Part shown: positions 19,750 through 32,655 of the stretch, in pieces | Layout of the letters: the number at the start of each line of letters is the position of its first letter | Position numbering within the stretch: position 1 is the stretch's first letter | DNA from: a virus | Virus record (IMG/VR): IMGVR_UViG_3300027804_000046 | Location: 72,550-136,549 of that record | Direction: 5' to 3' (one strand) | Length of the DNA stretch: 64,000 nt | The notes under the pieces: generated by a model | Databases searched by the model: none | What the model was told of the DNA's origin: nothing | The model's input: only the letters and a program-made list of their open reading frames with translations | Program-made: the position numbers and the translations under genes

Positions 19750-20285
19750 TGAAAATCAACATTCGCGGTAAGACTTCGGCCATGTGTAAGGCCGAAATCA
19801 AGTTTGCTACAATCTTCTTTGCTCAGTATATCATGAGCAAGAGACTGCTAGAAAATATTCAGGTCGATATCTGCTTTGAGAAACAAGGCAAGTATGCACA
19901 GGGTCATTGTTTTTCTTATGATGATGGTCCGCGCCCGCGAATGTTTGAAATCGGTATCAATTCAAAACTGTCCCGATACAAGATGCTGCAATGCCTCGCG
20001 CATGAGATTGTCCATATGAAGCAATATGCGAAAGGCGAGTTGCGACACGAACTAATCACAGCCAAGTGGCAGGGCAAGACCTACAAGATTACCAATTCTT
20101 TCGAGGACTATCTAAACTGGCCTTGGGAAATTGAAGCGTATGGTCGCGACCGTTCGCTATATCTGCTCTATTCTTGTGTCCTGAAACAGGAAAAGATTAA
20201 GTTCAAGCACGGGTATCCTTATATTCGTGGAAAACGTCTGACAAAAAAGATGTTGACATCCTTCAAGACAACTGCTAAGATTTGA
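19749..20285 (+). CDS. Zincin-like metallopeptidase domain protein
   Basis: LAHEIVHMKQY HEXXH and PWEIEAY. Confidence 0.7.
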   Translation: MKINIRGKTSAMCKAEIKFATIFFAQYIMSKRLLENIQVDICFEKQGKYAQGHCFSYDDGPRPRMFEIGINSKLSRYKMLQCLAHEIVHMKQYAKGELRHELITAKWQGKTYKITNSFEDYLNWPWEIEAYGRDRSLYLLYSCVLKQEKIKFKHGYPYIRGKRLTKKMLTSFKTTAKI

Positions 20286-20518
20286 CCATGATGACAAATG
20301 ATTGGAAACCGAACGTTGGCGATCTGCTGCATGTCCGTACTGAATATAAGTATGGTTGTCGGCATGACATTCTCATCAAGAGTGGAAGGGTAGTGAAAAG
20401 TGAGCGATACGATCCAAAAAATACTTTTCGTCTATACACTGGCAATCCTCAGTATCCCGTTTCTATCATCGCATTGGAACGAGTCACTGGTGTTAAGATT
20501 CGCAAAGGTGCAGCATAA
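20282..20518 (+). CDS. Hypothetical protein
   Basis: ORF after a TTGACA...TAAGAT promoter-like motif. Confidence 0.5.
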   Translation: MTMMTNDWKPNVGDLLHVRTEYKYGCRHDILIKSGRVVKSERYDPKNTFRLYTGNPQYPVSIIALERVTGVKIRKGAA

Positions 20519-20706
20519 TGGTTAGGTCATATGAAGTAGATTTTTCTGTAGTTGACAACCGCGTCGGCTTCATGCTATATTGCTTTGAAGAAGATGATTG
20601 CATCTGGGAACAGTTTTTCCTGGACAGCGATGATGCACACAAGACTGGTCATCGTTTTCTTGATGGCTGTTACATCAGAGGCTTTCCTGTTGATCAGGTA
20701 GCATAA
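20518..20706 (+). CDS. Hypothetical protein
   Basis: TAATG coupling. Confidence 0.5.
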   Translation: MVRSYEVDFSVVDNRVGFMLYCFEEDDCIWEQFFLDSDDAHKTGHRFLDGCYIRGFPVDQVA

Positions 20707-20718
20707 ATAAAGTTCAAT

Positions 20719-20795
20719 GGCTCCGTAACTCAACTGGATAGAGTGTCAGACTTCTAATCTGAATGCTGGGGGTTCAAGTCCCTCCGGAGTCGCCA
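20719..20795 (+). tRNA. tRNA-Arg(TCT)
   Basis: TCAGA-CTTCTAA-TCTGA; CCA. Confidence 0.93.
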
Positions 20796-20819
20796 ATTAA
20801 AGTATAATGGAGAAAGTGA

Positions 20820-21086
20820 ATGTCCGCACCAAAGACTAAATCTGCTTACACCTCAAAGGGTGAGCGTGAAGCAAATCGACAGATTTCTAAGGCCATCAAG
20901 CGTGATCGGTCTGCTATTGTAAAGTGGACAATCTTACAGAAGGCTTGGTTGAAGGGTAAGAATCCTTGGTTGTCTGTTCCAAATGAGAACACGGCCGATA
21001 CTCGCGCACGGTTCGTTCGCGTCCGCGCAGATACATATTGGGGTGATCCTCGCAAGGGATTCATTCACGGGTCAAGCAAGGACTAA
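20820..21086 (+). CDS. Hypothetical basic protein
   Basis: GGAG RBS; AWLKGKNPWLSVPN. Confidence 0.6.
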   Translation: MSAPKTKSAYTSKGEREANRQISKAIKRDRSAIVKWTILQKAWLKGKNPWLSVPNENTADTRARFVRVRADTYWGDPRKGFIHGSSKD

Positions 21087-21092
21087 AATAAA

Positions 21093-21168
21093 GCCCCTTT
21101 AGCCCAGCGGTAGAGGCAGAGGACTTAAAATCCTTCAAGGGTCAGTTCGAATCTGACAAGGGGCACCA
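21093..21168 (+). tRNA. tRNA-Leu(TAA), short variable loop
   Basis: GAGGA-CTTAAAA-TCCTT; CCA. Confidence 0.88.
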
Positions 21169-21172
21169 ACTC

Positions 21173-21248
21173 GCGCCTGTAGCATAGCGGTTAATGCTGA
21201 CGGCTCATAACCGTCCGATCCTCAGTTCGAATCTGAGCGGGCGCACCA
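21173..21248 (+). tRNA. tRNA-Met or Ile2 (CAT)
   Basis: GACGG-CTCATAA-CCGTC; CCA. Confidence 0.9.
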
Positions 21249-21264
21249 AAACAAAGGAAGTAAA

Positions 21265-21540
21265 ATGAAAACGCCAAAGACTAAAGCGAATGATACAGTC
21301 AAGGAAGTTCCTCTAAAAATTAAAGAAGAGAAGATTGATCCTGTTGTTGTTGTTTCTGAATATGTGTCAACAGACAAGACACTCAAAGCAGTCATAAAGC
21401 AAAATCGTCTAACATCTTTGTATGAGATCGACTTCTACAAAGACAAGAAGATTGTCGCAACGGAATCATATGCGTTCCATACTCGCAGATATCACGAAGA
21501 TGCTGCTGAGAATTATGTGAACGGCATTAAAAAGCTTTGA
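21265..21540 (+). CDS. Hypothetical protein
   Basis: AAGGA RBS; EDAAENYVNGI. Confidence 0.6.
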   Translation: MKTPKTKANDTVKEVPLKIKEEKIDPVVVVSEYVSTDKTLKAVIKQNRLTSLYEIDFYKDKKIVATESYAFHTRRYHEDAAENYVNGIKKL

Positions 21541-21545
21541 TATAA

Positions 21546-21637
21546 CGGCGTGGGTGTTGGTACACGGGAGGGCCTTATAATCCCTTTAGCACTAGATGAG
21601 TGTTCTTGACTTGGTTCGAATCCAAGCACGCCGACCA
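21546..21637 (+). tRNA. Atypical tRNA with TAT anticodon (nominal Ile) and long variable arm
   Basis: CGGCGTG/CACGCCG acceptor, GTGT-TGGT-ACAC D arm, CTTATAA loop, variable arm, CTTGG-TTCGAAT-CCAAG, ACCA. Confidence 0.75.
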
Positions 21638-21650
21638 AATTTGAGGTAAC

Positions 21651-22730
21651 ATGAAACCTACTTATCTTGATTGTCTTATGCACAATCATTATTACAAAGA
21701 TGACTTTAATTATAAAGAGGGCTGGGGCACACCTAAAGAAGAGTGTGATGAAGGTCTGTTGAACGACATTTGCGATTATTTCTTTCGTAGAATGGAAAGA
21801 GAGAATATAGTCAATGGTGCAGAGTCAATAACATGGGGACCAATCATTGAAACCCATAAAGAATATGCTATGGCTCTTATCAATAAAGACATACCAAAAG
21901 TTCATAATACATTAAAAAACTTATGTAATTCTCCCTTAACTAGAGGCATCTTTGGTGGAGATTTGTTGTATGAGTTCTATAAGAAGAACAAGCACGACAG
22001 AGCAATGTATGTTTTTGGTGTATTCGACAAACTTCTGTCTATATGTGAAGCTAATGGTCTAATTCCATGCTTCAATCCAGAAGACCATGAATATATAAAG
22101 ATTGCATACCAAAAGCCAGAACATTTTCTAGACTTGCTTGCCAAGCACTACAAGTTTGATATATCTGCTCCGAAATATGCTGGTGGCAATCTTGGAATAA
22201 ACACAGACTTTGGACTTTATAATCAGCGTGATATGTTTGCATTGTATATCGCATTGAATGTAGTAAACAAATGTCAAGATAAAAACTTGAGAATATGTGA
22301 GATTGGTGGAGGTGCAGGACATCTGGCATTCTATTTGCATAGACTAGGATTTAGAAATCTGACTATCGTGGATCTTCCTACAGTATCTACTGTTCAGATG
22401 TATTTTCTAGGCACAAACTTGTGTCGATACAATGGAATAAATTTTATGTGTACCGAAGATTTCGATGGCAACTACGACTTGATTATCAATGCCGATAGTT
22501 TCATTGAAATGAATAGAGAGTCGGCCAGTCGATATTTGAACCTGATTAAAGAAAACGGCAGACATCTGATTTCACTAAATCAAGAAACTGGACCTCATCA
22601 ATTTGGTGAAGCAGGATTTAGAGTTTGTGACATAACAGATATGCCAAGAACAACTAGGCATATGTCATGGATTCGTAAGGGTTGGGTCTATGAGGAGTAT
22701 CTAGGAAATAAAGCGAGAGTGACGGAATAG
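21651..22730 (+). CDS. Putative sugar O-methyltransferase
   Basis: ICEIGGGAG, IVDLP, DLIINADSFIEM. Confidence 0.7.
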   Translation: MKPTYLDCLMHNHYYKDDFNYKEGWGTPKEECDEGLLNDICDYFFRRMERENIVNGAESITWGPIIETHKEYAMALINKDIPKVHNTLKNLCNSPLTRGIFGGDLLYEFYKKNKHDRAMYVFGVFDKLLSICEANGLIPCFNPEDHEYIKIAYQKPEHFLDLLAKHYKFDISAPKYAGGNLGINTDFGLYNQRDMFALYIALNVVNKCQDKNLRICEIGGGAGHLAFYLHRLGFRNLTIVDLPTVSTVQMYFLGTNLCRYNGINFMCTEDFDGNYDLIINADSFIEMNRESASRYLNLIKENGRHLISLNQETGPHQFGEAGFRVCDITDMPRTTRHMSWIRKGWVYEEYLGNKARVTE

Positions 22731-22789
22731 GTATACGTATCAGTCTCAAAAACTGAGTTTTGTGGGTTCGAGTCCCACCTTTCGCACCA
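22713..22789 (+). tRNA. tRNA-Leu(CAA), short variable loop
   Basis: TCAGT-CTCAAAA-ACTGA; CCA; overlaps the stop of the upstream CDS. Confidence 0.88.
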
Positions 22790-22949
22790 AACAACAAAAT
22801 GACATATTGGGAAATATACTACGGTAAATGTAAAGAGAAACCGAATGGATCTCCAGAATGTCATGCTTATTGTAAATTATGTAATGGTCTTAATTGGAAA
22901 CCACTAGGACCAAAAACTTACGAAGAACTGCTAAATTTTCACAGGACAC

Positions 22950-22980
22950 TTGACAAATTGACTTCCTTGTGATATAAATA
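22950..22980 (+). promoter_or_regulatory. Promoter of the leader ORF: TTGACA-N17-TATAAA overlapping a T4-type late promoter TATAAATA
   Basis: TTGACA at 22950-22955; TATAAATA at 22973-22980. Confidence 0.7.
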
Positions 22981-23005
22981 GAATACAGAGTTAGAAAGAA
23001 CGGAA

Positions 23006-23089
23006 ATGAAATCGCATTATTGCCCAATTACGAATAATCAATTTGAAGGTCGCCCAGCATGGGCAGACGCGAGGGGTTCTATGCTTTAA
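23006..23089 (+). CDS. Putative attenuator leader peptide MKSHYCPITNNQFEGRPAWADARGSML
   Basis: 27 codons, 19 different amino acids; 3' end overlaps the antiterminator strand. Confidence 0.75.
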   Translation: MKSHYCPITNNQFEGRPAWADARGSML

Positions 23090-23114
23090 GTCTTACGGAT
23101 AGACTTAGTTTCTT

Positions 23115-23152
23115 AGAACCCCGAAGCCAAAAGTTTCGGGGTTCTTCTTTTT
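23115..23152 (+). terminator. Intrinsic terminator (attenuator)
   Basis: AGAACCCCGAAGC/GTTTCGGGGTTCT stem followed by TCTTTTT; the 5' strand can alternatively pair with GGGGTTCTA at 23073-23081. Confidence 0.88.
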
Positions 23153-23157
23153 GAGTT

Positions 23158-23222
23158 ATGCGTCTAGAACATAGCAGTTATGCAAAAATAAAAGTTGACT
23201 TCCTGGTTCTGAACTGCTATAT
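23158..23222 (+). promoter_or_regulatory. Promoter of the tRNA array with ATGC-N7-ACAT-N7-ATGC box
   Basis: Box 23158-23183; GTTGAC-N17-CTATAT. Confidence 0.75.
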
Positions 23223-23377
23223 TGTGTTTGTAAGTTGATTGAAAGAGTTTCCTAGCTGCGGGATAAGCAGCACCGCTGATTAACATTGTTAAGTTCCTTT
23301 TTCCTAGTGATATCAAAAACTAGGCGTACCGAATGACGAGACATCGGTGAGATTACTACGATTCGGCGTAGCCTCAC

Positions 23378-23466
23378 ATTCTATTATCACAGACACATGG
23401 TGCTGTTCCTTAAGTTGGGTAAGAATGCTTCGGCAAATCGTCATCATGTGTCTTTGATAATAGAAT
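23378..23466 (+). ncRNA. Long stem-closed structured RNA module
   Basis: ATTCTATTATCA-C-AGACACATGGTG pairs with CATCATGTGTCT-T-TGATAATAGAAT. Confidence 0.55.
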
Positions 23467-23468
23467 AT

Positions 23469-23544
23469 TGGATAGTAGCTCCAGCGGTAGAGCGCCTCGC
23501 TGTTAACGAGGATGTCCTTGGTTCGAATCCAAGCTATCCAGCCA
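23469..23544 (+). tRNA. tRNA-Asn(GTT)
   Basis: CCTCG-CTGTTAA-CGAGG; CCA. Confidence 0.92.
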
Positions 23545-23546
23545 AT

Positions 23547-23621
23547 TCACGGTTCGTTAGAATTAGTGCGATTAAAGTAACGAGTCGGCAGGATGCATAC
23601 TGTGACCGATCTTCGCCGTGA
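23547..23621 (+). ncRNA. Three-way-junction RNA module
   Basis: TCACGG/CCGTGA closing stem; internal TCGTTA/TAACGA and TCGG/CCGA stems. Confidence 0.45.
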
Positions 23622-23630
23622 TAATAATTT

Positions 23631-23705
23631 GCGCCAGTAACTCAGTGGTAGAGTAGCGGTCTCTTAAACCGAATGTCGTGAGTTCGATTCTCACCTGGCA
23701 CACCA
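23631..23705 (+). tRNA. tRNA-Lys(CTT)
   Basis: CGGT-CTCTTAA-ACCG; CCA. Confidence 0.9.
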
Positions 23706-23706
23706 A

Positions 23707-23789
23707 TTAGAATGTAGTGTGGGTAGTAGGGCCAACTGTAAAATGGAAACCCCGATCAGCAACTCGCGTAAAAATACATTACATTCTAA
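23707..23789 (+). ncRNA. Stem-closed structured RNA module
   Basis: TTAGAATGTAGTGT pairs with ACATTACATTCTAA. Confidence 0.5.
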
Positions 23790-23799
23790 CTAAACAAAC

Positions 23800-23873
23800 G
23801 GTCTTGTAGTGAATGGATATCACACCTCTCTGTCTAAGAGGAGAAGCGAGTTTGAGCCTCGCCAAGATCGCCA
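23800..23873 (+). tRNA. tRNA-Asp(GTC)
   Basis: CCTCT-CTGTCTA-AGAGG; variant T-loop TTTGAGC; CCA. Confidence 0.85.
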
Positions 23874-23875
23874 TA

Positions 23876-23941
23876 TATAAGAACTGGCAGCAGTCGGTGA
23901 AGCAGTATTGTGAAGTGCTGTGGAGAGTGTCAGTTCTTATA
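23876..23941 (+). ncRNA. Stem-closed structured RNA module
   Basis: TATAAGAACTGGCA pairs with TGTCAGTTCTTATA. Confidence 0.5.
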
Positions 23942-23952
23942 AACAAGTATAA

Positions 23953-24029
23953 CGGAGTGTGGCTCAGTCTGGTAGAGCATTCGCTTTGGGAGCGAAGTGT
24001 CGTGGGTTCGAATCCTACCACTCCGACCA
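23953..24029 (+). tRNA. tRNA-Pro(TGG)
   Basis: TTCGC-TTTGGGA-GCGAA; CCA. Confidence 0.93.
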
Positions 24030-24033
24030 ATTT

Positions 24034-24133
24034 GACCGATTAGTGTAACGGTAGCACAGGAGAAGTCCGAGACATCGAAAGATGGAGTAGGCGTCAAATG
24101 CTCCAGAGCGGTTCAATTCCGCACAGGTCACCA
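24034..24133 (+). ncRNA. tRNA-like RNA with an expanded anticodon domain
   Basis: D arm GTGTAACGGTAGCAC, T arm GCGG-TTCAATT-CCGC, ACCA end; about 38 nt between GGAG and CTCC. Confidence 0.65.
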
Positions 24134-24292
24134 AGTCGCTGGATTACTATAGAGACGGACGGTGCACTCTGTCTCTTGTGCGTACCAGTAGAGGCGCCGC
24201 GCACCCCTCTATAAAAACGCGGATGAAATTCAAATGTAGAGCATCGGTTCTAAGAACCGTAGTTGACTATATACTCTAGAAGGAGTATTATA

Positions 24293-24613
24293 ATGGCAGC
24301 AACTTTACATAGTCAAACAAGAAGACTTTCGGATGAACAAGTTTTCGTTGAAAATTCACAGTATGCTCGGCATCATATCAAGCGCCGTGTCATAGAACAA
24401 CAGATGATTCCTTACCGTTGTGCATCTTGTGATAATGACGGTACTCATAATGGTAGACCTCTTGTTTTACAACTTGATCATATGAACGGCGTGAATGATG
24501 ACAATAGATTAGAGAATCTCCGCTTTCTCTGTCCTAACTGTCATTCACAAGAAGATACATATGCAGCAAAGAATAGAAAGAATGCTGCACGAAAACCTAA
24601 AAAATATTGTTAA
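24293..24613 (+). CDS. HNH endonuclease
   Basis: CASC...LQLDHMNGVNDDNRLENLRFLCPNCH. Confidence 0.9.
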   Translation: MAATLHSQTRRLSDEQVFVENSQYARHHIKRRVIEQQMIPYRCASCDNDGTHNGRPLVLQLDHMNGVNDDNRLENLRFLCPNCHSQEDTYAAKNRKNAARKPKKYC

Positions 24614-24614
24614 T

Positions 24615-24688
24615 ATCAGTGTAGTGTAGTGGTAACACGTTGATCTCCAAAATCAAAATCCAGGGTTCGAATCCTTGCACTGGTGCCA
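24615..24688 (+). tRNA. tRNA-Trp(CCA)
   Basis: TTGAT-CTCCAAA-ATCAA; CCA. Confidence 0.92.
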
Positions 24689-24691
24689 ATA

Positions 24692-24863
24692 AAATGGGCG
24701 TGGTAGAAGTCCACTGTATGGGTTGTTGACCCTAGCCCGTTTAGAAGAACGGTAACAGACCGCGAATCTGTGAGAACATGTGTGTATCGCAAACATACAT
24801 TAAGTATCCCTATGATAAAAATGCTGGTCTCCGTTAAGAGCGGGCAGCAGGGAGCGTTCTTCT
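24692..24863 (+). ncRNA. Two adjacent multibranch RNA modules
   Basis: AAATGGGC/GCCCGTTT (24692-24742) and AGAAGAACG/CGTTCTTCT (24743-24863) closing stems with internal hairpins. Confidence 0.5.
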
Positions 24864-25005
24864 AACTCAATTCAAGAAACGTGCCCTTTACGGTTGAAAT
24901 AAACTAGGGTGTTACTGAATGATTTTCTCTCTTCGGCCGATTAAAGAGAGACCGTTAAATAAGTAACCGTTTGCCTGACTGCGATAGTGACAGGAGCTAT
25001 TAATA

Positions 25006-25080
25006 GGGCCCTTAGTGATAATGGGAGCACATCGCCTTTGCACGGCGAGGGTAAGAGTTCGATTCTCTTAGGGTCCACCA
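25006..25080 (+). tRNA. tRNA-Ala(TGC)
   Basis: TCGCC-TTTGCAC-GGCGA; G3:U70 pair; CCA. Confidence 0.93.
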
Positions 25081-25279
25081 ATAATGATCTGACTACGTAG
25101 CAGCAGTGCGCGTCATGAATGTCAGACAGTCAGTCGAATAACTGTGAGATTGACATCAAGTTTGATCTGTCACCATCGCACAGGACGCCGTTCGCTTGAG
25201 AACGGAATAACGTTACTGTGAATGTGTCGCCAAGTTACAGACGACATTCGAGCCGACCGCGTGAGGCTCAGCAAGTTTT

Positions 25280-25363
25280 GGGTAGGTAAAGCTAGTGGTT
25301 CTAGCAGTGGGTCTGTAAAACCCATCCTTAAAGGGAGTGGATCGTAACCGCACCTGCCCACCA
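25280..25363 (+). tRNA. tRNA-Tyr(GTA), atypical T-loop
   Basis: TGGGT-CTGTAAA-ACCCA; variable arm; T-loop ATCGTAA; CCA. Confidence 0.8.
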
Positions 25364-25588
25364 AATTACCCGTCTTTCTAGATAAGACAGGGGAGACCTA
25401 ATAGGCCCAACATGAGGGAAAGCCTATGAATACAGGATTGCTGACTCTGTTCGCGAAAGGGCTTAACCTGTAAGGTGTAACGAATATAGTAACCGCCGTA
25501 GGCCGTGGCGGTATATAAATCCGAGACTATATGTCTGTCGGGGTTGACCGTCCTTTCAGTGGGACCAGCGAAACGGTTCACAATTCAA

Positions 25589-25662
25589 TGCCCATTAGCT
25601 CAATGGTAGAGCGCTCGACCGATAATCGAGTTACAGTAGTTCGATTCTACTATGGGCAACCA
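25589..25662 (+). tRNA. tRNA-Ile(GAT)
   Basis: CTCGA-CCGATAA-TCGAG; CCA. Confidence 0.9.
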
Positions 25663-25795
25663 ATTGCCATAAGCTAGGCGCCATAGCGAACTGGCAGTAA
25701 ACAGGCTACACCCTTTCCCTCGCGCGGGGTGTCCGCATAAGCGTTTGCGTGGTTAGTCTGGGGTAAGAGTCCCAAGCTTGGAGGGATGAATTTAT

Positions 25796-25892
25796 TTCTA
25801 GCATAGCCTGGGGCGGTAGGTGCACACTACCAAAGTACTTGTATTTTGATAGTGACTACCAAAGTACGGTTCAAATCCGTCGCTAGAAGCCA
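25796..25892 (+). ncRNA. tRNA-like RNA with a long hairpin in place of the anticodon arm
   Basis: TTCTAGC/GCTAGAA-G-CCA acceptor, ACGG-TTCAAAT-CCGT T arm, internal duplication of ACTACCAAAGTAC. Confidence 0.6.
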
Positions 25893-25898
25893 GTTTAT

Positions 25899-25972
25899 TG
25901 GGAGATCGTCTAACGGCAGGACGTTGGATTTTGATTCCAACTATCTAGGTTCGAATCCTAGTCTCCCAGCCA
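25899..25972 (+). tRNA. tRNA-Gln(TTG)
   Basis: TTGGA-TTTTGAT-TCCAA; CCA. Confidence 0.92.
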
Positions 25973-25975
25973 ATT

Positions 25976-26050
25976 GAACCCTTAACTCAGTGGTAGAGTA
26001 GCGGGCTTTTAATCCGTCTGTCCTGGGTTCGAATCCCAGAGGGTTCTCCA
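25976..26050 (+). tRNA. tRNA-Lys(TTT)
   Basis: GCGGG-CTTTTAA-TCCGT; CCA. Confidence 0.92.
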
Positions 26051-26051
26051 T

Positions 26052-26123
26052 GGAGCATTCGACTATCGGTTAGGTCACATCCCTTTCAAGGATGAGAGAC
26101 GGGTTCGACTCCCGTATGCTCTA
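26052..26123 (+). tRNA. tRNA-Glu(TTC), CCA not encoded
   Basis: CATCC-CTTTCAA-GGATG. Confidence 0.88.
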
Positions 26124-26127
26124 CATT

Positions 26128-26180
26128 GAAGTCCTCAGGATACTATATAGTATGTAAACCCTATTGTATCCTGAGGCTTC
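26128..26180 (+). promoter_or_regulatory. RBS-sequestering hairpin upstream of the GIY-YIG endonuclease
   Basis: CCTCAGGATAC/GTATCCTGAGG stem covering GAGG; CTATATAG within it. Confidence 0.65.
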
Positions 26181-26183
26181 CTA

Positions 26184-26798
26184 ATGTTCTATACTATCTA
26201 CAAAACAACAAATCTGGTAAACGGTAAGTTCTATATCGGTAAACATAAGACCAAAGACTTGGATGATGGATACATGGGATCAGGCAAAATACTGAAACAT
26301 GCCATCTCCAAGTATGGTCTTGATAACTTTCATAAAGAGATTCTTCATATATGTAAAGATGAAGCTCATATGGATTTGTTAGAAAGTATTCTTGTAGTTC
26401 CTGATGTTGAAACAAACTATAATCTATGTGAAGGTGGCAAAGGTGGTTGGAGTTTCATAAACGCACAGCCAGAGATTCGTCAAAAGAGACGGGAGCATGG
26501 CAAATCGCGTCCTCTAGAACACTTCAAACGAATGGGTAAAGCTAATGCCGAAAACACATCTCGTAGGATGAAATCTCTTCATGCCGAAGGTAAAATTCGA
26601 TATGATACTTGGAAAGGCAAAAAACATACCGACGAACAAAAACAAAAGCTTTCTGCCATCATGAAAGAAAAGCAGAAAGGATCTAAAAACTCTCAATATG
26701 GAACATGTTGGATTACAAATGACCGAGAAAACAAAAAGATCAAACGCCAAGACCTCAATGCGTGGATCGAACAAGGATACAGACAAGGTCGTGTCTAA
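26184..26798 (+). CDS. GIY-YIG (Seg-like) homing endonuclease with NUMOD3-like repeats
   Basis: YTIYKTTNLVNGKFYIGKH, YMGSG, YNL, KGKKHTDEQKQKLS. Confidence 0.9.
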   Translation: MFYTIYKTTNLVNGKFYIGKHKTKDLDDGYMGSGKILKHAISKYGLDNFHKEILHICKDEAHMDLLESILVVPDVETNYNLCEGGKGGWSFINAQPEIRQKRREHGKSRPLEHFKRMGKANAENTSRRMKSLHAEGKIRYDTWKGKKHTDEQKQKLSAIMKEKQKGSKNSQYGTCWITNDRENKKIKRQDLNAWIEQGYRQGRV

Positions 26799-26934
26799 TC
26801 CATTTACCATCACATCACTATCAGAAGTTGGCGCTAAGTCTATTAAGCGACTCTATGAGAAGATGGGTTATAAACATGTATCTATAAAATACGATAACAA
26901 GAAAGAAGTATATACTAATACATTCAAGTAATAT

Positions 26935-27007
26935 TGCGGGTTAGAGAAGCGGTCATCTCGCTTGGCTCATACCCAGGAAATCGTCAGTTCGAATCTGGCA
27001 CCCGCTA
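26935..27007 (+). tRNA. tRNA-Met(CAT), initiator-like
   Basis: 1:72 mismatch; CTTGG-CTCATAC-CCAGG; CCA not encoded. Confidence 0.8.
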
Positions 27008-27008
27008 C

Positions 27009-27082
27009 GCTGCATTAGTTTAATGGTAAAACATCGGTTTGTGGAGCCGATTACAGTGGTTCGATTCCACTATGCAGTACCA
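27009..27082 (+). tRNA. tRNA-His(GTG)
   Basis: TCGGT-TTGTGGA-GCCGA; CCA. Confidence 0.87.
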
Positions 27083-27083
27083 T

Positions 27084-27157
27084 TGCCCTTTCGTCTAACG
27101 GCAGGACTCTGGCCTCTGACTCCAGCAATTGTGGTTCGAATCCACGAAGGGCAGCCA
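27084..27157 (+). tRNA. tRNA-Gln(CTG)
   Basis: CTGG(C)-CTCTGAC-(T)CCAG; CCA. Confidence 0.88.
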
Positions 27158-27173
27158 ATTAGGAGAAAACATT

Positions 27174-27602
27174 ATGAACAAGATTATTGGATTTACATGT
27201 TCTACGTTTGATTTGTTTCATGCTGGTCATGTTGCGATGCTAGAAGAAGCAAAGCAGCAATGTGATTGGTTAATTGTTGGACTACAAGTGGATCCTACAA
27301 TTGATAGACCAGAGAAAAACAAGCCAGTTCAAAGTTTGATTGAAAGGCAATTGCAAGTAAGAGCCTGCAAGTTTGTTGATGAGATTATTGTATATTCTAC
27401 AGAAGCAGAATTGCTTGATATCCTAAACATGCTGCCTATAGATGTTCGCATACTTGGTGAAGAGTATAGAGGCAAGACATTCACAGGATATAAAATCTCA
27501 AAGATGAAATACCATTTTAACAAGCGCGAACACAGTTTTAGTTCATCAGAGTTAAGAAGAAGAATTGCTGTTGAACATTTTAAAATAAATCCGGAGACGT
27601 AG
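27174..27602 (+). CDS. Cytidylyltransferase (TagD-like)
   Basis: STFDLFHAGH HxGH motif, HSFSSSELR. Confidence 0.85.
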   Translation: MNKIIGFTCSTFDLFHAGHVAMLEEAKQQCDWLIVGLQVDPTIDRPEKNKPVQSLIERQLQVRACKFVDEIIVYSTEAELLDILNMLPIDVRILGEEYRGKTFTGYKISKMKYHFNKREHSFSSSELRRRIAVEHFKINPET

Positions 27603-27668
27603 CAAAACGGTTAATGTACGGGACTGCAAATCCTTGAGGTGCCAGTTCGAATCTGGCCGTCTCCTCCA
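27593..27668 (+). tRNA. tRNA-Cys(GCA)
   Basis: GGGA-CTGCAAA-TCCT; U73; CCA. Confidence 0.9.
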
Positions 27669-27670
27669 AA

Positions 27671-27747
27671 GCACTCGTAGCGCAACTGAATAGAGCATCG
27701 GTCTACGAAACCGAAGGTTGGTGGTTTGAGTCCATCCGAGTGCGCCA
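27671..27747 (+). tRNA. tRNA-Arg(ACG)
   Basis: TCGGT-CTACGAA-ACCGA; CCA. Confidence 0.9.
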
Positions 27748-27789
27748 ACTATATACTAAAAGTGGAGGGCGTAACCACTATAAGAAATT

Positions 27790-27877
27790 GGAAGGTTGGT
27801 AGAGTGGTCTATTGCACTCGCCTTGAAAGCGAGAGGTCCGAAAGGATCCGTGGGTTCGAATCCTACACCTTCCGCCA
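27790..27877 (+). tRNA. tRNA-Ser(TGA)
   Basis: CTCGC-CTTGAAA-GCGAG; long variable arm; GCCA. Confidence 0.93.
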
Positions 27878-27894
27878 CTCAAAAGGAAAACGTT

Positions 27895-28395
27895 ATGATT
27901 AGAAAGCAACTAAACATCGAAGAAGTCAAGGCATTCATCAATGCACAAACACCTGAAACAAAGGTGTATCTAGGCGGCGACTCTGAACGTTTCCAGATTG
28001 ACGGTGTTTGGTATGCAGACTACATCAACGTTGTTGTTGTCCATAAGAATGGAAAGAACGGTTGTAAGGTGTTTGGTGGAATTGTTCGTGAAAGGGACTA
28101 TGATCAGCAAAAGGATCGTCCACGTATGCGTCTTATGAATGAAGTCATGAAGACCGCTTCCCTTTATATGGAATTGCATGATGTATTGGAAGACCGTGAG
28201 GTTGAAATTCATCTTGACATTAACCCAAATAAAGAGTATGGTAGTTCTTGTGTGATCAACGAAGCAGTTGGATATATTCGCGGTATGTGTAACATTGTAC
28301 CACTTGTAAAGCCAAATGCATGGGCAGCATCTTACTGTGCTGACCGTTACAAGGATGCAATTCAACATTTGCCTAAGGAAGATAAGGTAGCATGA
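27895..28395 (+). CDS. RNase H-like YkuK (DUF458) family protein
   Basis: KVYLGGDS, RLMNEV, EIHLDIN, KPNAWAASYCAD. Confidence 0.8.
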   Translation: MIRKQLNIEEVKAFINAQTPETKVYLGGDSERFQIDGVWYADYINVVVVHKNGKNGCKVFGGIVRERDYDQQKDRPRMRLMNEVMKTASLYMELHDVLEDREVEIHLDINPNKEYGSSCVINEAVGYIRGMCNIVPLVKPNAWAASYCADRYKDAIQHLPKEDKVA

Positions 28396-28808
28396 AGAAG
28401 ATTTTCGTTATGATGGCGGCTCTGGTTGCAATGACTGGAGTTGCTAAAGCCGAAGATGTAATCATCACGGTCGATGTCTCGGATCAAATCATGTTAGTAG
28501 AAACACCAACGGACTATTATGAGTGGAATGTTTCTACTGGGCGAAAGGGATACAATACTCCTCGCGGTGTATTTCAGCCGTATCATATGACCAAGATGCA
28601 CTATTCTCGCAAGTATGATAATGCGCCGATGCCAAACTCTATCTTCTTCCTTGACGGATATGCAATACATGCAACGGATGCAATAAACAACTTAGGGCGC
28701 CCAGCATCTCACGGCTGCATCCGTCTGCACCCGCAGAATGCAAAGTGGCTATATAGAATTGTCAGCGAGTACGGTAAGGAAAACACGACGATTATTATAC
28801 AGAATTAG
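28392..28808 (+). CDS. L,D-transpeptidase (YkuD family) with signal peptide
   Basis: VSTGR, YDNAPMP, AIHAT, ASHGCIRL. Confidence 0.9.
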   Translation: MKKIFVMMAALVAMTGVAKAEDVIITVDVSDQIMLVETPTDYYEWNVSTGRKGYNTPRGVFQPYHMTKMHYSRKYDNAPMPNSIFFLDGYAIHATDAINNLGRPASHGCIRLHPQNAKWLYRIVSEYGKENTTIIIQN

Positions 28809-28898
28809 GACAGATGGCCGAGCGGCCGAAGGCACCTCACTGCTAACGAGGCATACCCTAATAAGGTATCGTGGGTTCAAATCCCACTCTGTCCGCCA
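28808..28898 (+). tRNA. tRNA-Ser(GCT)
   Basis: CCTC(A)-CTGCTAA-(C)GAGG; long variable arm; GCCA. Confidence 0.92.
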
Positions 28899-28913
28899 AT
28901 ATAGGAGAAACAA

Positions 28914-29060
28914 ATGAGTAAAGACTGTGGTTGCGGTCGTAGTCCAGATGGCAAGTGTTGCGGTTGGCATAACTTGACAAATGAACAATATGATGCTAAG
29001 AAGAAAGAATATGAAAATAAGCAATTGAACGAATCAGCACCTCAATTGTTGAAAGGTTGA
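28914..29060 (+). CDS. Small CDGSH-like Fe-S/Zn peptide
   Basis: MSKDCGCGRSPDGKCCGWH; GGAG RBS. Confidence 0.6.
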   Translation: MSKDCGCGRSPDGKCCGWHNLTNEQYDAKKKEYENKQLNESAPQLLKG

Positions 29061-29061
29061 A

Positions 29062-29751
29062 ATGGAAAAAACTACTTACTGTTTTGATGTTGATGGTACA
29101 CTGACTCCTAGTCGTTCTCTAATGGACGAAGAGTTTCGCAAAGAATTTGTTGAGTTTGCAAATAAGCATGATGTATGTCTTGTTACAGGCTCAGATTATC
29201 CAAAGACATTAGAACAAGTAGGTCAAGAAGTTATTGATTCGTGTTCGTTTATATTCAATTGCTGCGGCAATGAAGTTCGTTCAAAAGACAAAGTTAGATA
29301 TCAGTCTACGTGGAAAGCGGGCGGTATCTTGTTCATGACTTTGGAATATGAAAAGCGCAAGAGTGGCTTTAACATTCGTACTGGCAAACATTCTGAGATG
29401 AGAACAGGAATGGTCAATTTCTCAGTCGTTGGTCGTAATGCAGACAAAGCACAAAGAGCCTTGTATGTCGAATGGGACAATGCAACAAATGAACGAGTGC
29501 AAATTGCGGAACGTATCAGAAAACTATTTCCTGAACTAGATTGTACTATTGCTGGTGAGACTGGACTTGATATCTATCCAAAAGGAAAAGATAAGTCTCA
29601 AGTGAAGGATTGGATAGAAAACAAACTGGTATTTTTTGGCGACAAATGCGAGAAAGGCGGAAACGATTATCCTCTTGCAAAAGTGGCCGATGTAGTGTAT
29701 AATGTAAAAAATTGGGAAGAGACAAGAAAAATTCTGGCTGCCTTGGTATAG
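29062..29751 (+). CDS. Phosphomannomutase (HAD-IIB, eukaryotic-type)
   Basis: FDVDGTLT, VTGSD, NFSVVGRNA, FFGDKCEKGGNDY. Confidence 0.88.
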   Translation: MEKTTYCFDVDGTLTPSRSLMDEEFRKEFVEFANKHDVCLVTGSDYPKTLEQVGQEVIDSCSFIFNCCGNEVRSKDKVRYQSTWKAGGILFMTLEYEKRKSGFNIRTGKHSEMRTGMVNFSVVGRNADKAQRALYVEWDNATNERVQIAERIRKLFPELDCTIAGETGLDIYPKGKDKSQVKDWIENKLVFFGDKCEKGGNDYPLAKVADVVYNVKNWEETRKILAALV

Positions 29752-29812
29752 CTGGTGCGTACATACGCCTGAAGAGCGTGGGGACTCTGTTCGATTCAGA
29801 GAGGCAGCACCA
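29737..29812 (+). tRNA. tRNA-Phe(GAA)
   Basis: TACGC-CTGAAGA-GCGTG; CCA. Confidence 0.9.
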
Positions 29813-29817
29813 TTAAT

Positions 29818-29893
29818 GCGTCTTGGGAGGTGTTGGCAATCTCATCGGTCTCATAAGCCGAACAACCCAGTTCGAAACTTGGAAGACGCACCA
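29818..29893 (+). tRNA. tRNA-Met(CAT)
   Basis: TCGGT-CTCATAA-GCCGA; CCA. Confidence 0.82.
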
Positions 29894-29896
29894 ATC

Positions 29897-29971
29897 GCGG
29901 GTATAGCACAGGGGTAGTGCGTCTGCTTGCCAAGCAGAAGGTCATGGGTTCGATCCCCATTGCCCGCTCCA
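29897..29971 (+). tRNA. tRNA-Gly(GCC)
   Basis: TCTGC-TTGCCAA-GCAGA; CCA. Confidence 0.92.
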
Positions 29972-30017
29972 ATTTATAAATAATGAAAGACCAATCACGG
30001 TCTAATGAGGTAATAAC

Positions 30018-30191
30018 ATGCTAAACACAATTGTAGTTCTTATTCTAGTTGCAGCCGTTCTTTGGGTAGGCTGGGAACTTTGGCAGAATGGTTGGGATGT
30101 AAAGAAGGCAATCGGCGCCGTTGTGGCCGCTGGTGCTGCATGGTGGGTTTGGGCTCACGATGCTGTGACTTCACTTACGTCAGGACTTTGA
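30018..30191 (+). CDS. Small two-TM membrane protein (late)
   Basis: TATAAATA at about 29976, GAGG RBS, hydrophobic 57 aa. Confidence 0.6.
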   Translation: MLNTIVVLILVAAVLWVGWELWQNGWDVKKAIGAVVAAGAAWWVWAHDAVTSLTSGL

Positions 30192-30236
30192 CATAAAGGC
30201 GCTGATCCGTCGCTTCTAATAACGGATCAATAATTC

Positions 30237-30311
30237 AGCCGATTAGTTCACTGGTAGAACACCTCGTTTACACCGAGGGTGTAGGGAGTTCGAATCTCTC
30301 ATCGGCTACCA
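30237..30311 (+). tRNA. tRNA-Val(TAC)
   Basis: CCTCG-TTTACAC-CGAGG; CCA. Confidence 0.92.
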
Positions 30312-30365
30312 TTAACGCTAGTCCAGAAAACTAGCGTATTATAAATACTCCATAAGGAGTATAAA

Positions 30366-30665
30366 ATGGCAAAAGCATATAATCCAGTAAATAGATTTGG
30401 TCCTAGGAAATCAAACGACGAGATATTTGTTATCGATAGCACATATGCTAGACATAATCTTAAGCGTAGACTTTTGCAAGAAAACCTGCTACCATATAAA
30501 TGTTCGTCGTGTGGAATAGGCAATGTGTGGAATAACAAAGAACTAGTTCTTCAGTTAGATCATATAAATGGTAAGAATAACGATAATAGACTTGAAAACT
30601 TACGATTCATTTGTCCGAATTGTCACACACAAACGGAAACATTTAGTTGTAAGAAAAAAAGATAA
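30366..30665 (+). CDS. HNH endonuclease (paralog of 24293-24613)
   Basis: CSSC...LQLDHINGKNNDNRLENLRFICPNCH; late promoter TATAAATA at 30340. Confidence 0.9.
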   Translation: MAKAYNPVNRFGPRKSNDEIFVIDSTYARHNLKRRLLQENLLPYKCSSCGIGNVWNNKELVLQLDHINGKNNDNRLENLRFICPNCHTQTETFSCKKKR

Positions 30666-30749
30666 GCGGATATGGCGAAATGGCAGACGCACCAGTCTTA
30701 GGAACTGGCGGAGTAATCCATGGGGGTTCAAGTCCCTCTATCCGCACCA
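30666..30749 (+). tRNA. tRNA-Leu(TAG)
   Basis: CCAGT-CTTAGGA-ACTGG; variable arm; CCA. Confidence 0.93.
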
Positions 30750-30754
30750 ACTAT

Positions 30755-30828
30755 GCCTCTATAGTATAAAGGTAGTACACGGCTTTGGTAAAGCCGAGAC
30801 ACAGGATCGATACCTGTTAGAGGCACCA
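30755..30828 (+). tRNA. tRNA-Thr(GGT)
   Basis: CGGCT-TTGGTAA-AGCCG; variant T-loop ATCGATA; CCA. Confidence 0.85.
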
Positions 30829-30843
30829 GATAAATAATCAAAT

Positions 30844-30930
30844 GCTGGCTTGGCTGAACGGCTGAAGGCAACGGTTTTGTAATCCGTCGGAGTAATCCCA
30901 TTGCAGGTTCGAATCCTGTGGCCAGCACCA
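30844..30930 (+). tRNA. tRNA-Thr(TGT) with long variable arm
   Basis: ACGG(T)-TTTGTAA-(T)CCGT; GGA-GTAA-TCC variable arm; CCA. Confidence 0.82.
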
Positions 30931-30947
30931 TTTCTTGTGAGCAAACT

Positions 30948-31637
30948 ATGATATATGATGGAATATTTTTTGTTAATCATGCACTGAAAGTCAATCAACT
31001 TTCAGTATATAATGAAGAAGAGCGTTTCAATCAGACTATCGAAACAATCGATTCTATTAACAAGTATTGCCCGAACAATCAAGTATTCATTTTCGATTCT
31101 TCTCCAGAACGTCCCAATGTAGAATACTTCCAGGAACTTAGCGATAGAGGCGTAATTGTCTTTTACACTGGTGATGAATCAGATGTTAAGAGATTTTCTC
31201 AGTTGGGCCAGCGAAGCATCGCAGAATGCATCACGTTTCTGTATTTCCTCAACTGGTTTCAAAAGCAAGACTTCAAATCAAAACGCATCTATAAACTCTC
31301 TGGTCGTTACAGACTGAACGACAACTTTATTGTTGATAGAGAAGATTTCAAAGATGCTTTTGTATTTGCAACGGCTCTTGATTCGTGGATGCCTAAGCAC
31401 AGACAAGATAGTATTGGAGCGCATAAACTATTCCGTCTTCGTTGCTGGCACATGGACTACACTCTGCTTGACACCTTTCAACTAAATCTTTCCAAAATAC
31501 TTCAAGACTGTGCTACACACGGAATAGATGTTGAGCATTCTTACTATAAAAACTTGCATACATATAAGACGATTGAACTTGACAAAATTGGTGTATGTGG
31601 TAATATAGCACCAAGTGGAGATTACATTGATGAGTAA
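30948..31637 (+). CDS. Hypothetical protein (glycosyltransferase-like)
   Basis: RIYKLSGRY, IDVEHS motifs; in sugar cluster. Confidence 0.55.
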   Translation: MIYDGIFFVNHALKVNQLSVYNEEERFNQTIETIDSINKYCPNNQVFIFDSSPERPNVEYFQELSDRGVIVFYTGDESDVKRFSQLGQRSIAECITFLYFLNWFQKQDFKSKRIYKLSGRYRLNDNFIVDREDFKDAFVFATALDSWMPKHRQDSIGAHKLFRLRCWHMDYTLLDTFQLNLSKILQDCATHGIDVEHSYYKNLHTYKTIELDKIGVCGNIAPSGDYIDE

Positions 31638-32655
31638 AACGGTATTGATTACAGGCGGTGCAGGCTTTATTGCACATCATGTTGTGGACTTGTTTCTGCA
31701 AAAGACAGATTGGAATATCATCACGCTAGACAGGCTTGATTATTCTGGCAATCTTAATCGACTACATGAAGTTATTGATCCATATCCCTACGAAATACAA
31801 AAGCGCGTTCGGACAGTCTTTCATGATTTGAAGGCTGAACTGAATCCTCTTGTGCAAAACTTTATTGGCAAGGTAGATATCATTCTACACTTGGCCGCAG
31901 CATCACACGTAGATAGGTCAATCACACATCCTCTTGAGTTCATCACAGATAACATCATGGGCACGGCCAATCTGCTGGAATATGCCCGCAAGTTGGATCA
32001 TCTAGAAATGTTTCTGTATTTCAGCACCGATGAAATCTTTGGTGTTGCGCCTCCTGGTGTCGCTTACAAGGAACGTGATCGCTATAACTCGACCAATCCA
32101 TATTCAGCATCAAAGGCTGGTGCAGAAGAACTGTGTGTTGCCTATGAAAACACATACAAGATGCCTATGATGATCACTCACACTATGAATGTGTTTGGTG
32201 AACGTCAGACACCAGAAAAGTTTATTCCACTTTGCATCAAAAAGGTCTTGCATGACGAGACTGTGACCATTCATGCTGATGCAACAAAGACAAAGGCAGG
32301 TTCGCGCTTCTACGTACATGCGCGTGATGTGGCTGATGCTCTGCTGTTCCTTTTGCAGAACAATCCTCAGCTTAAACCTGATTATGGTCTAGCAAAGTGT
32401 CGCAAGTTTAATATCGTTGGCAAAGAAGAAGTAGACAATCTATCTCTCGCTAAGATGATTGCATCTGCTCAAGGTAAGGAACTAAAATATGAAATGGTTG
32501 ACTTCCATACATCCAGACCAGGGCATGATTTACGTTATGCTTTATCCGGTGATCTTATGCGTTCTCTCGGCTGGGAACCTCGCGTGGCTCTTAGTGATAG
32601 AATTAAAGAAGTTTCTGATTGGTATGTAAATAACACCAAGTGGTTAGGAATGTAA
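31630..32655 (+). CDS. rmlB: dTDP-glucose 4,6-dehydratase
   Basis: TGGAGFI, HLAAASHVDRSI, STDE, YSASK, RPGHDLRY. Confidence 0.9.
   Translation: MSKTVLITGGAGFIAHHVVDLFLQKTDWNIITLDRLDYSGNLNRLHEVIDPYPYEIQKRVRTVFHDLKAELNPLVQNFIGKVDIILHLAAASHVDRSITHPLEFITDNIMGTANLLEYARKLDHLEMFLYFSTDEIFGVAPPGVAYKERDRYNSTNPYSASKAGAEELCVAYENTYKMPMMITHTMNVFGERQTPEKFIPLCIKKVLHDETVTIHADATKTKAGSRFYVHARDVADALLFLLQNNPQLKPDYGLAKCRKFNIVGKEEVDNLSLAKMIASAQGKELKYEMVDFHTSRPGHDLRYALSGDLMRSLGWEPRVALSDRIKEVSDWYVNNTKWLGM

Follow-up and report, generated by a model that had tools for sequence, protein, structure and literature searches.

The stretch of 64,000 nucleotides (nt) analysed here—hereafter the window, positions 72,550 to 136,549 of the viral record IMGVR_UViG_3300027804_000046—carries, between a mini-array and a main array of phage tRNA genes, an element that is probably a ribosome-operated attenuator. 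Such a leader-peptide switch, of the trp/his type, would gate the transcription that enters the main array from a promoter named P1. We ground this interpretation on the anatomy of the element, its conservation, the covariation of its strands, its open frame and its position before tRNA genes. The source record (136,549 bases, 81% complete) holds a single copy of it.

All parts of the element lie on the plus strand. P1 exactly matches TTGACA-N17-TATAAA, with its -35 hexamer TTGACA at 22950-22955 and, 17 nt after it, the -10 box TATAAATA at 22973-22980. The leader follows, an open reading frame (ORF) of 27 codons plus TAA (23006-23089, MKSHYCPITNNQFEGRPAWADARGSML), whose ATG adjoins the last base of a weak Shine-Dalgarno-like GGAA (23002-23005). 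Strand 1 (GCAUUAUUGCCC, 23014-23025) covers codons 3-7 and strand 2 (23073-23084) codons 23-26; in minimum-energy folds strand 1 pairs with 23074-23084, as it would when the ribosome is absent, and the two enclose hairpin P (GUCGCCCA-GCA-UGGGC-A-GAC, 23049-23068), a candidate pause hairpin. Strand 2 may also pair with strand 3: GGGGTTCTA (23073-23081) is the exact complement of TAGAACCCC (23114-23122). This second helix, the antiterminator, would be capped by hairpin H, TAAGTCT/AGACTTA (23087-23093 / 23101-23107), the 5' foot of which is the stop codon. Strand 3 (23114-23127) is made of T23114 and the 5' arm of a terminator, strand 4 (23133-23145) of its 3' arm. The terminator (23115-23145) has 13 pairs, is GC-rich, continues with TCTTTTT (U tract 23146-23152) and is the strongest among six terminator-like sites between 20 and 32 kb. 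Judged by its pairing potential, the layout reproduces the complete trp-leader scheme of 1:2, 2:3 and 3:4 pairings. A previous reading of this DNA, made from the sequence only, had described the ORF, the complementary strands, the hairpin, the terminator and the promoter hexamers, and all of them are present where it placed them.

A nucleotide search of the phage collection (isolated phages) with 22790-23470 gave no match. Two viral contigs with the element were reached through the 359-aa protein encoded upstream, which is 73-77% identical among relatives; scans with patterns of the conserved core, together with a hidden Markov model (HMM) search over the fetched loci, gave 27 loci. The element was held by 8 of the 37 stretches of the first viral pattern scan, the rest being chance matches in GC-rich DNA, and by 14 of the 29 stretches of a metagenome scan; a 14-base pattern was abandoned as too unspecific, since 3 of its 116 stretches had the element. 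Scanning with the array-leader motif GCTGATTNACATTGTTAAGTTCC, which lies further downstream, added 15 loci. The HMM matched 14 of these; the other, L195, has no more than 105 nt of upstream sequence, too little for a judgement. The outcome is 22 distinct versions on contigs of uncultured T4-like phages: 19 DNA versions, plus L103 and groups B and C. Group A contains four subgroups, among them the window type, the L012 type, the L019 type and L003/L059. The leader of group B reads MKHYCPFTINQETRQPSWAGVGGSMY; group C has diverged strongly and uses GTG as its start codon (MNKPYALSQKIEWNRPCDFHVGVLCM in L184, MNKPCVQLSNSIEWNRPYDFHVGVLCM in L190). At all 23 loci examined tRNA genes lie 3' of the element, on the same strand and within about 0.1-0.75 kb, so that the place ahead of tRNA genes claimed for the window is a general one. 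The order Leu-CAA, element, Asn-GTT is found in the 20 loci with sufficient downstream sequence (the record of L059 ends before the expected place of Asn). An Rfam scan of 20000-32000 at permissive thresholds returned only tRNAs, and no leader, riboswitch, small RNA (sRNA) family or T-box; the best match in 22940-23470 was the rnk leader, at 17.2 bits for a threshold of 55 bits (E = 2.4).

The RNA of 22985-23155 folds at -54.5 kcal/mol, compared with -38.6 +/- 3.6 for shuffled sequences (z = -4.4), and none of 200 shuffles was as good. The 16 aligned versions of group A were folded twice, as the full transcript and as a transcript cut before the 3' arm of the terminator. The full transcript adopted the terminator fold in 16/16, and the cut transcript brought strand 2 onto strand 3 around hairpin H, again in 16/16; in groups B and C the same change of fold occurred in 4 of 6 versions. 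Full-length folds moreover place strand 2 on a CCC-containing strand 1 (codons 3-8) around hairpin P, in most minimum-energy folds. All 22 versions have a terminator hairpin.

Covariation was scored on a MAFFT alignment of the 16 versions, fitted to no structure. The antiterminator form has 92.0% of its cells paired, whereas sliding the partners by 1-3 columns leaves 30-48%; nine of its pairs are changed on both sides, and its covariation score was reached by none of 500 column shuffles. The terminator form has 88.4% of cells paired on the same alignment. The mutually exclusive antiterminator/terminator geometry proposed from the window alone is thus real, and conserved with covariation. Three cases are the clearest. 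In L041 a triple change keeps both helices: GGGG becomes GAGG in strand 2 (a synonymous change), CCCC becomes CCTC in strand 3 and GGGG becomes GAGG in strand 4. In L003/L059 the 2:3 pairing has grown to 12 pairs (GGGGTTTCGTGT / ACACGAAGCCCC) by using bases outside the terminator stem, and in the L001 type the end pair of the antiterminator has passed from A-T to G-C. The partners of 1:2 differ but stay complementary: CCCAUUG/CAGUGGG in L003, CCCUAUUG/CAAUAGGG in L059, CCCUAC/GUAGGG in L184 and CCCCUUCAC/GUG.AGGGG in group B. Hairpin P has 97.7% of its cells paired across the 16 versions, and groups B and C build a hairpin at this place from a different sequence. Hairpin H is likewise rebuilt, as TGTAGG/CCTACA in L003/L059 and ATGTGA/TCACAT in L190; its equivalent in L184 is imperfect (ATGTGAT/ATCGCAT).

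The frame of the leader is open in 22/22 versions, over 25-27 codons, while the other five frames nearly always have stops. The start is ATG in 20 versions and, in the two others, GTG with AGG/AAGGAAG upstream; in the relatives a Shine-Dalgarno-like GGAA, AGGA or GAGGA stands 0-9 nt 5' of the start. Indels within the ORF are all multiples of three—L103 has one codon (3 nt) inserted in the loop of hairpin P—and those downstream measure 1, 1-3, 2 and 1 nt, which upholds the idea that the ORF is kept open. In every version the stop codon is at the foot of hairpin H or adjacent to it. Constraint on the peptide itself is weak: the pooled ratio of nonsynonymous to synonymous changes (pN/pS) is 0.71, and the three codon positions vary nearly equally (23/16/25). 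Synonymous sites within the stems, including those of hairpin P, are invariant. From the near-equal codon positions, this ratio, the indels in threes and the invariant stem sites together, selection keeps the frame and the RNA helices, not the protein; conservation of the peptide as the main constraint was rejected on the ratio and the codon positions. This is what would be expected of a leader peptide, and argues against a micro-protein acting in trans. An overlapping ORF in the +2 frame (23059-23154, MGRREGF...) was also considered and discounted as a gene, since it lacks a ribosome-binding site, ranges between 17 and 31 codons in length and is shifted by indels of 1-2 nt in the loop of hairpin H.

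Upstream of the leader, TTGACA or a near match is found 5' of most of the 22 versions, and a TAAATA(G/A)RRTA box in 22/22. TATAAATA also fits the consensus of T4-type late promoters. Its designation as late-type, made in the sequence-only reading, found no support in its frequency: the window has 3 copies where 3.4 are expected by chance. These three boxes (22973, 29975 and 30340) are all on the plus strand and inside the tRNA region. In several versions (L159, L059, L194, L189) the conserved box sits 5-6 nt behind a separate -10 hexamer, TAAAAT/TAGAAT, and for this reason it is conserved in its own right; the arrangement fits putative dual promoters, early and late.

Behind the terminator, the window has a second promoter-like site, P2 (TTGACT-17-TATATT, 23195-23223, plus strand), and then, shortly 3' of the attenuator, the conserved array-leader motif GCTGATTAACATTGTTAAGTTCC (23275-23297, plus strand). 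With one free base, GCTGATT(N)ACATTGTTAAGTTCC, this motif has an exact match in 25 viral-contig stretches; it may be a processive-antitermination site or a processing site of a long tRNA transcript. In group C a small hairpin and the motif come within about 20 nt of the U tract, ahead of the tRNA genes, and no P2-like site exists between terminator and array leader. There is no room for a promoter after the terminator; P1 and the switch are in this group the only visible entry to the array. The caveat raised for the window, that a second promoter could serve the array independently, is therefore right for the window lineage, where P2 was found, and does not extend to group C, with its terminator immediately adjacent to the array leader. 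The L188/L194 type shows, between terminator and motif, an ORF of about 75 codons (read by eye; L188 4600-4890, L194 9820-10110) with its own promoter-like site.

From this layout we infer that the leader is translated, and that the position of the ribosome would decide the fold. With the ribosome absent, 1:2 would form around hairpin P, leaving 3:4 to form and transcription to terminate. A ribosome that has reached the stop codon, at the foot of H, would cover strand 2 and open H, so that 3:4 would again form and lead to termination. A ribosome delayed at about codons 2-17 would break 1:2 and leave strand 2 free; 2:3 would then form around H and allow read-through into the array. The switch would in this way report the general capacity to decode, i.e. 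the supply of aminoacyl-tRNA or of tRNA, and raise the synthesis of phage tRNAs when decoding falters. That the readout would be a general one, rather than that of one amino acid, is suggested by the 15 different residues in 16 sensing codons and by the lack of any codon run.

In the window the leader has 19 different residues—only Val is missing—with 15 different ones among codons 1-16 and 18 among codons 1-21. A random 27-mer of phage composition has 14.4 +/- 1.4 (25-27-mers, 13.9-14.4 +/- 1.4), and the probability of 19 or more in 27 is about 0.001. The window has 75 ORFs that start with ATG and are 25-29 codons long; the runner-up among them has 16. Across the 22 leaders the number is 14-20, with a mean of 17.2, compared with 14.9 in open dinucleotide shuffles and 10-18 in the other five frames; L002 has all 20 amino acids within 26 codons (P about 2e-5). 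These shuffles and frames give no support to the proposal that the mixture of GC-rich stems with AT-rich spacers produces the diversity as a side effect.

A lineage test was also made, in which the residues shared by two lineages were kept fixed and the remainder redrawn. In the window type, L002, L003 and group C the observed diversity was above that of the redraws (P <0.0002 to 0.045); for L019 and group B this was so in some of the comparisons. The non-shared positions were more diverse than redraws in 5 of 6 lineages. Group C has only 4-10 of its 26-27 residues in common with other groups, yet has 18-19 different ones. The expectation that an excess of diversity would persist despite divergent sequences is thus borne out in most lineages, group C included, and fails in the L012 subgroup (14-16). 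The excess is real and recurrent and is not an artefact of composition; it is not universal, and the lineages are few. That selection acts on residue diversity itself seems to us about an even bet. A further feature is a weak hint at most, given the few independent lineages: codons read by the tRNAs of the upstream mini-array seem avoided in leader codons 2-17 (0 of 352, for a usage of 5.9%) and occur only from codon 21 onwards. Exact matching of codons to the anticodons of phage tRNAs is uninformative, since the array covers nearly all amino acids.

The reading of the element as a general sensor of decoding is plausible, though we would stop slightly short of giving it an even chance. In its fullest form, which we propose tentatively, the leader would be a codon-diverse "test message" gauging the whole aminoacyl-tRNA pool; any collapse of this pool would open the synthesis of about 24 phage tRNAs, the whole working as a feedback homeostat. 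Starvation, the decay of host tRNAs late in infection or a tRNA-cleaving anti-phage defence could each cause such a collapse, although the link with starvation or with defence is one that we only infer.

An attenuator with one particular input, in which diversity would be incidental, is in our opinion unlikely but has arguments. The input could be a specific codon or amino acid, the arrest of a nascent peptide, or the tightness of coupling as in pyrBI. All groups have Tyr, two Pro, Arg-Pro and Trp in common, the L012 subgroup is presumably functional with only 14-16 different residues, and the RNA stems explain much of the conservation of the peptide; synonymous sites in hairpin P are invariant. 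In addition, single codons respond to starvation more weakly than the runs of the his or leu leaders. However, the leader has no codon run: a tandem Asn-Asn is the only repeat, and L003/L059 as well as groups B and C have lost it. Free variation of the C-terminal residues makes an arrest of the TnaC type at the stop codon unlikely, and the diversity excess recurs in group C, with its 4-10 shared residues, and is unseen in other frames or in shuffles.

It is also improbable that the element is a self-contained small gene, or an sRNA of about 165 nt acting in trans, with a constitutive terminator and an alternative pairing that is merely a part of its fold. Promoter, ORF and strong terminator do make a complete unit, and in the window lineage the array has its own promoter-like site. 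There is also a precedent, terminated attenuator leader RNAs being described as acting as sRNAs in Sinorhizobium (PMC7968998). On the opposite side, the pN/pS of 0.71 and the near-uniform codon positions argue against a conserved protein, and the peptides of group C are almost unrelated; strand 3 takes part in two helices that exclude each other, and compensatory changes have preserved both, which is the signature of a switch and not of a single fold; and group C has nothing between its terminator and the array leader. Finally, a plain terminator or insulator ending the transcription of the mini-array and of the upstream genes, with ORF and complementarity arisen by chance and inherited by close relatives, is very improbable: the relatives are indeed fairly close, as judged from the 359-aa protein, and duplex energies are unexceptional against shuffles in 8 of the 22 versions, but a promoter lies directly 5' of the ORF in all versions, the indels of the ORF come only in multiples of three, and neither the triple compensatory change of L041, nor the 12-bp pairing of L003/L059, nor a covariation that 0/500 column shuffles attain, is accounted for.

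Several observations nevertheless weigh against the interpretation of the element as an attenuator, or limit its reach. L194 keeps 2:3 even in the full-length fold, and in the L188 type the 2:3 duplex is weak (-10.5 kcal/mol, 41% of shuffles as good), L188 itself not being captured by the cut. The U tracts of the L012 and L019 types are short and interrupted, and the L001 type has an internal G.A mismatch. Compared with mononucleotide shuffles, the 2:3 duplex beats 95% of them in only 14 of 22 versions and the 1:2 duplex in only 9. The window has only a weak Shine-Dalgarno match and the L012 subgroup none; this subgroup also shows no diversity excess (14-16 residues, P > 0.5 against redraws). 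The 22 versions are related, hence few independent samples. In the window lineage, since P2 lies 3' of the terminator, the switch could modulate only part of the transcription of the array.

RNA libraries offer a weak hint of read-through transcripts. One contig, of 341 nt, spans 23003-23343 and with it the terminator; another, of 151 nt, spans 23030-23181 and passes the U tract by only 29 nt. These data are assembled contigs, from which 3' ends, strand and expression levels are unreadable and in which uncovered parts are uninformative. They belong to relatives, with 10 differences and 2 gaps over 341 nt, and those that cross the terminator could come from DNA carry-over.

The phage to which the element belongs is T4-like, with a family-B DNA polymerase about 52% identical to those of Synechococcus myoviruses, and its DNA is contained in freshwater metagenomes. 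The window has 30 tRNA genes. Five form the mini-array (20719-22789: Arg-TCT, Leu-TAA, Met, Ile-TAT, Leu-CAA); the main array, the presumed regulated target, has 24, from Asn-GTT to Thr-TGT, on the plus strand (23469-30930). The tRNA-Ile(TAT) of the mini-array (21546-21637) is 92 nt long with a long variable arm and is kept in most relatives; in Rfam it comes closest to tRNA-Sec, with a score (27.9 bits) under the threshold. Directly 5' of tRNA-Asn the window has a long perfect inverted repeat (23377-23464). At the same place, relatives have a tRNA-like element of 68-69 nt within a long stem (L001 1640-1790; L003 440-508; L059 2395-2462), to which ARAGORN gives an odd or undetermined anticodon, or Arg-GCG.

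A tRNA-Tyr(GTA) stands between tRNA-Ala and tRNA-Ile(GAT) in L005, L012, L018, L019, L050, L098, L103 and L189; none was detected in the window, either at the corresponding place (25081-25588) or elsewhere. The leader retains a Tyr codon in 22/22 versions although the window has no detectable tRNA-Tyr. The leader region of L018 is near-identical to that of the window, and its tRNA-Tyr/Ile segment has no good match there, a pattern that suggests mosaic exchange inside the tRNA region. Two endonuclease-like ORFs are inserted within the array: one of 116 aa (24263-24613) with an HNH-like Cys/His pattern as read by eye, and one of 204 aa (26184-26798) with a weak match to the GIY-YIG protein SegE (23.1 bits, cut-off 25). 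Further downstream, a protein of 1173 aa (39672-43193) combines cytidylyltransferase-like and Zeta-toxin/AAA kinase-like domains with DUF6321; from the first two domains it could be a large NadR-like fusion of nucleotide metabolism.

The reason why phages carry tRNA genes, and when these matter, has been debated for decades. Recent work ties phage tRNAs to the escape from tRNA-cleaving defences (PMC10264068, PMC11464382, PMC11555353). If the proposed mechanism is true, the phage would measure decoding capacity through a codon-diverse ORF and answer with its own tRNAs, and a correlative question would become a testable circuit. Leader-peptide attenuation would at the same time be widened in three respects, with RNA genes among its targets, viruses among its owners and many amino acids as its input. 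With about 200 nt and a promoter fitting the sigma-70 consensus, the element is transferable to reporter or cell-free systems.

The element is best compared with trpL, hisL, leuL and pheL, the leader-peptide transcription attenuators of enterobacterial amino-acid operons. Like them it has a short leader ORF, here predicted to be translated, four strands that could pair as 1:2, 2:3 and 3:4, an intrinsic terminator, a stop codon at which a ribosome ending translation would mask strand 2, and a hairpin at the place expected of a pause hairpin. Unlike them it is encoded by a phage, has no codon run for one amino acid but 15 residues in 16 sensing codons, would target tRNA genes and not biosynthetic enzymes, has strand 2 wholly inside the ORF, and matches no Rfam leader family. 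Multivalent attenuators are known: the thr leader responds to Thr and Ile, that of ilvGMEDA to Ile, Leu and Val. These share with the phage leader the reporting of more than one amino acid, which in our case is predicted; they have however clusters of 2-3 amino-acid types belonging to one pathway, whereas the phage leader has 14-20 types, mostly once each.

Closer in their signal are leader ORFs of antibiotic-resistance genes, like those of erm and cat and those of the Term-seq work in Bacillus and Listeria, which reportedly sense the inhibition of translation and open a terminator before the resistance gene. There, as is proposed for the phage leader, a ribosome stalled anywhere in a short ORF flips an antiterminator/terminator pair, and the signal is the state of translation; but the output is a resistance protein, the trigger is a drug, and several of them need specific arrest peptides. 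To our knowledge none has been reported before tRNA genes or in a phage. The T-box, which binds uncharged tRNA directly and has no ORF, is also a terminator/antiterminator switch reporting tRNA charging, as the phage element would be; the latter differs by its ORF, and no T-box match was found.

In print, the nearest case, judging from the abstracts, is the trn operon of Anabaena sp. PCC 7120, a long tRNA array induced by translational stress via the repressor TrcR (PMC8421152, PMC10272220). Both are supernumerary blocks of more than 20 tRNA genes; transcription rises in Anabaena when translation is impaired, a response that is predicted for the phage. The Anabaena system is bacterial and relies on a DNA-binding ribbon-helix-helix repressor at the promoter; its abstracts mention neither a leader ORF nor a terminator switch. 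Full-text literature searches, which did not cover subscription journals and supplements, found no paper on attenuation of tRNA genes. The class of mechanism is that of the textbooks, and the departures from it are the tRNA-gene target, the viral owner and a leader with nearly one codon of each kind in place of a run.

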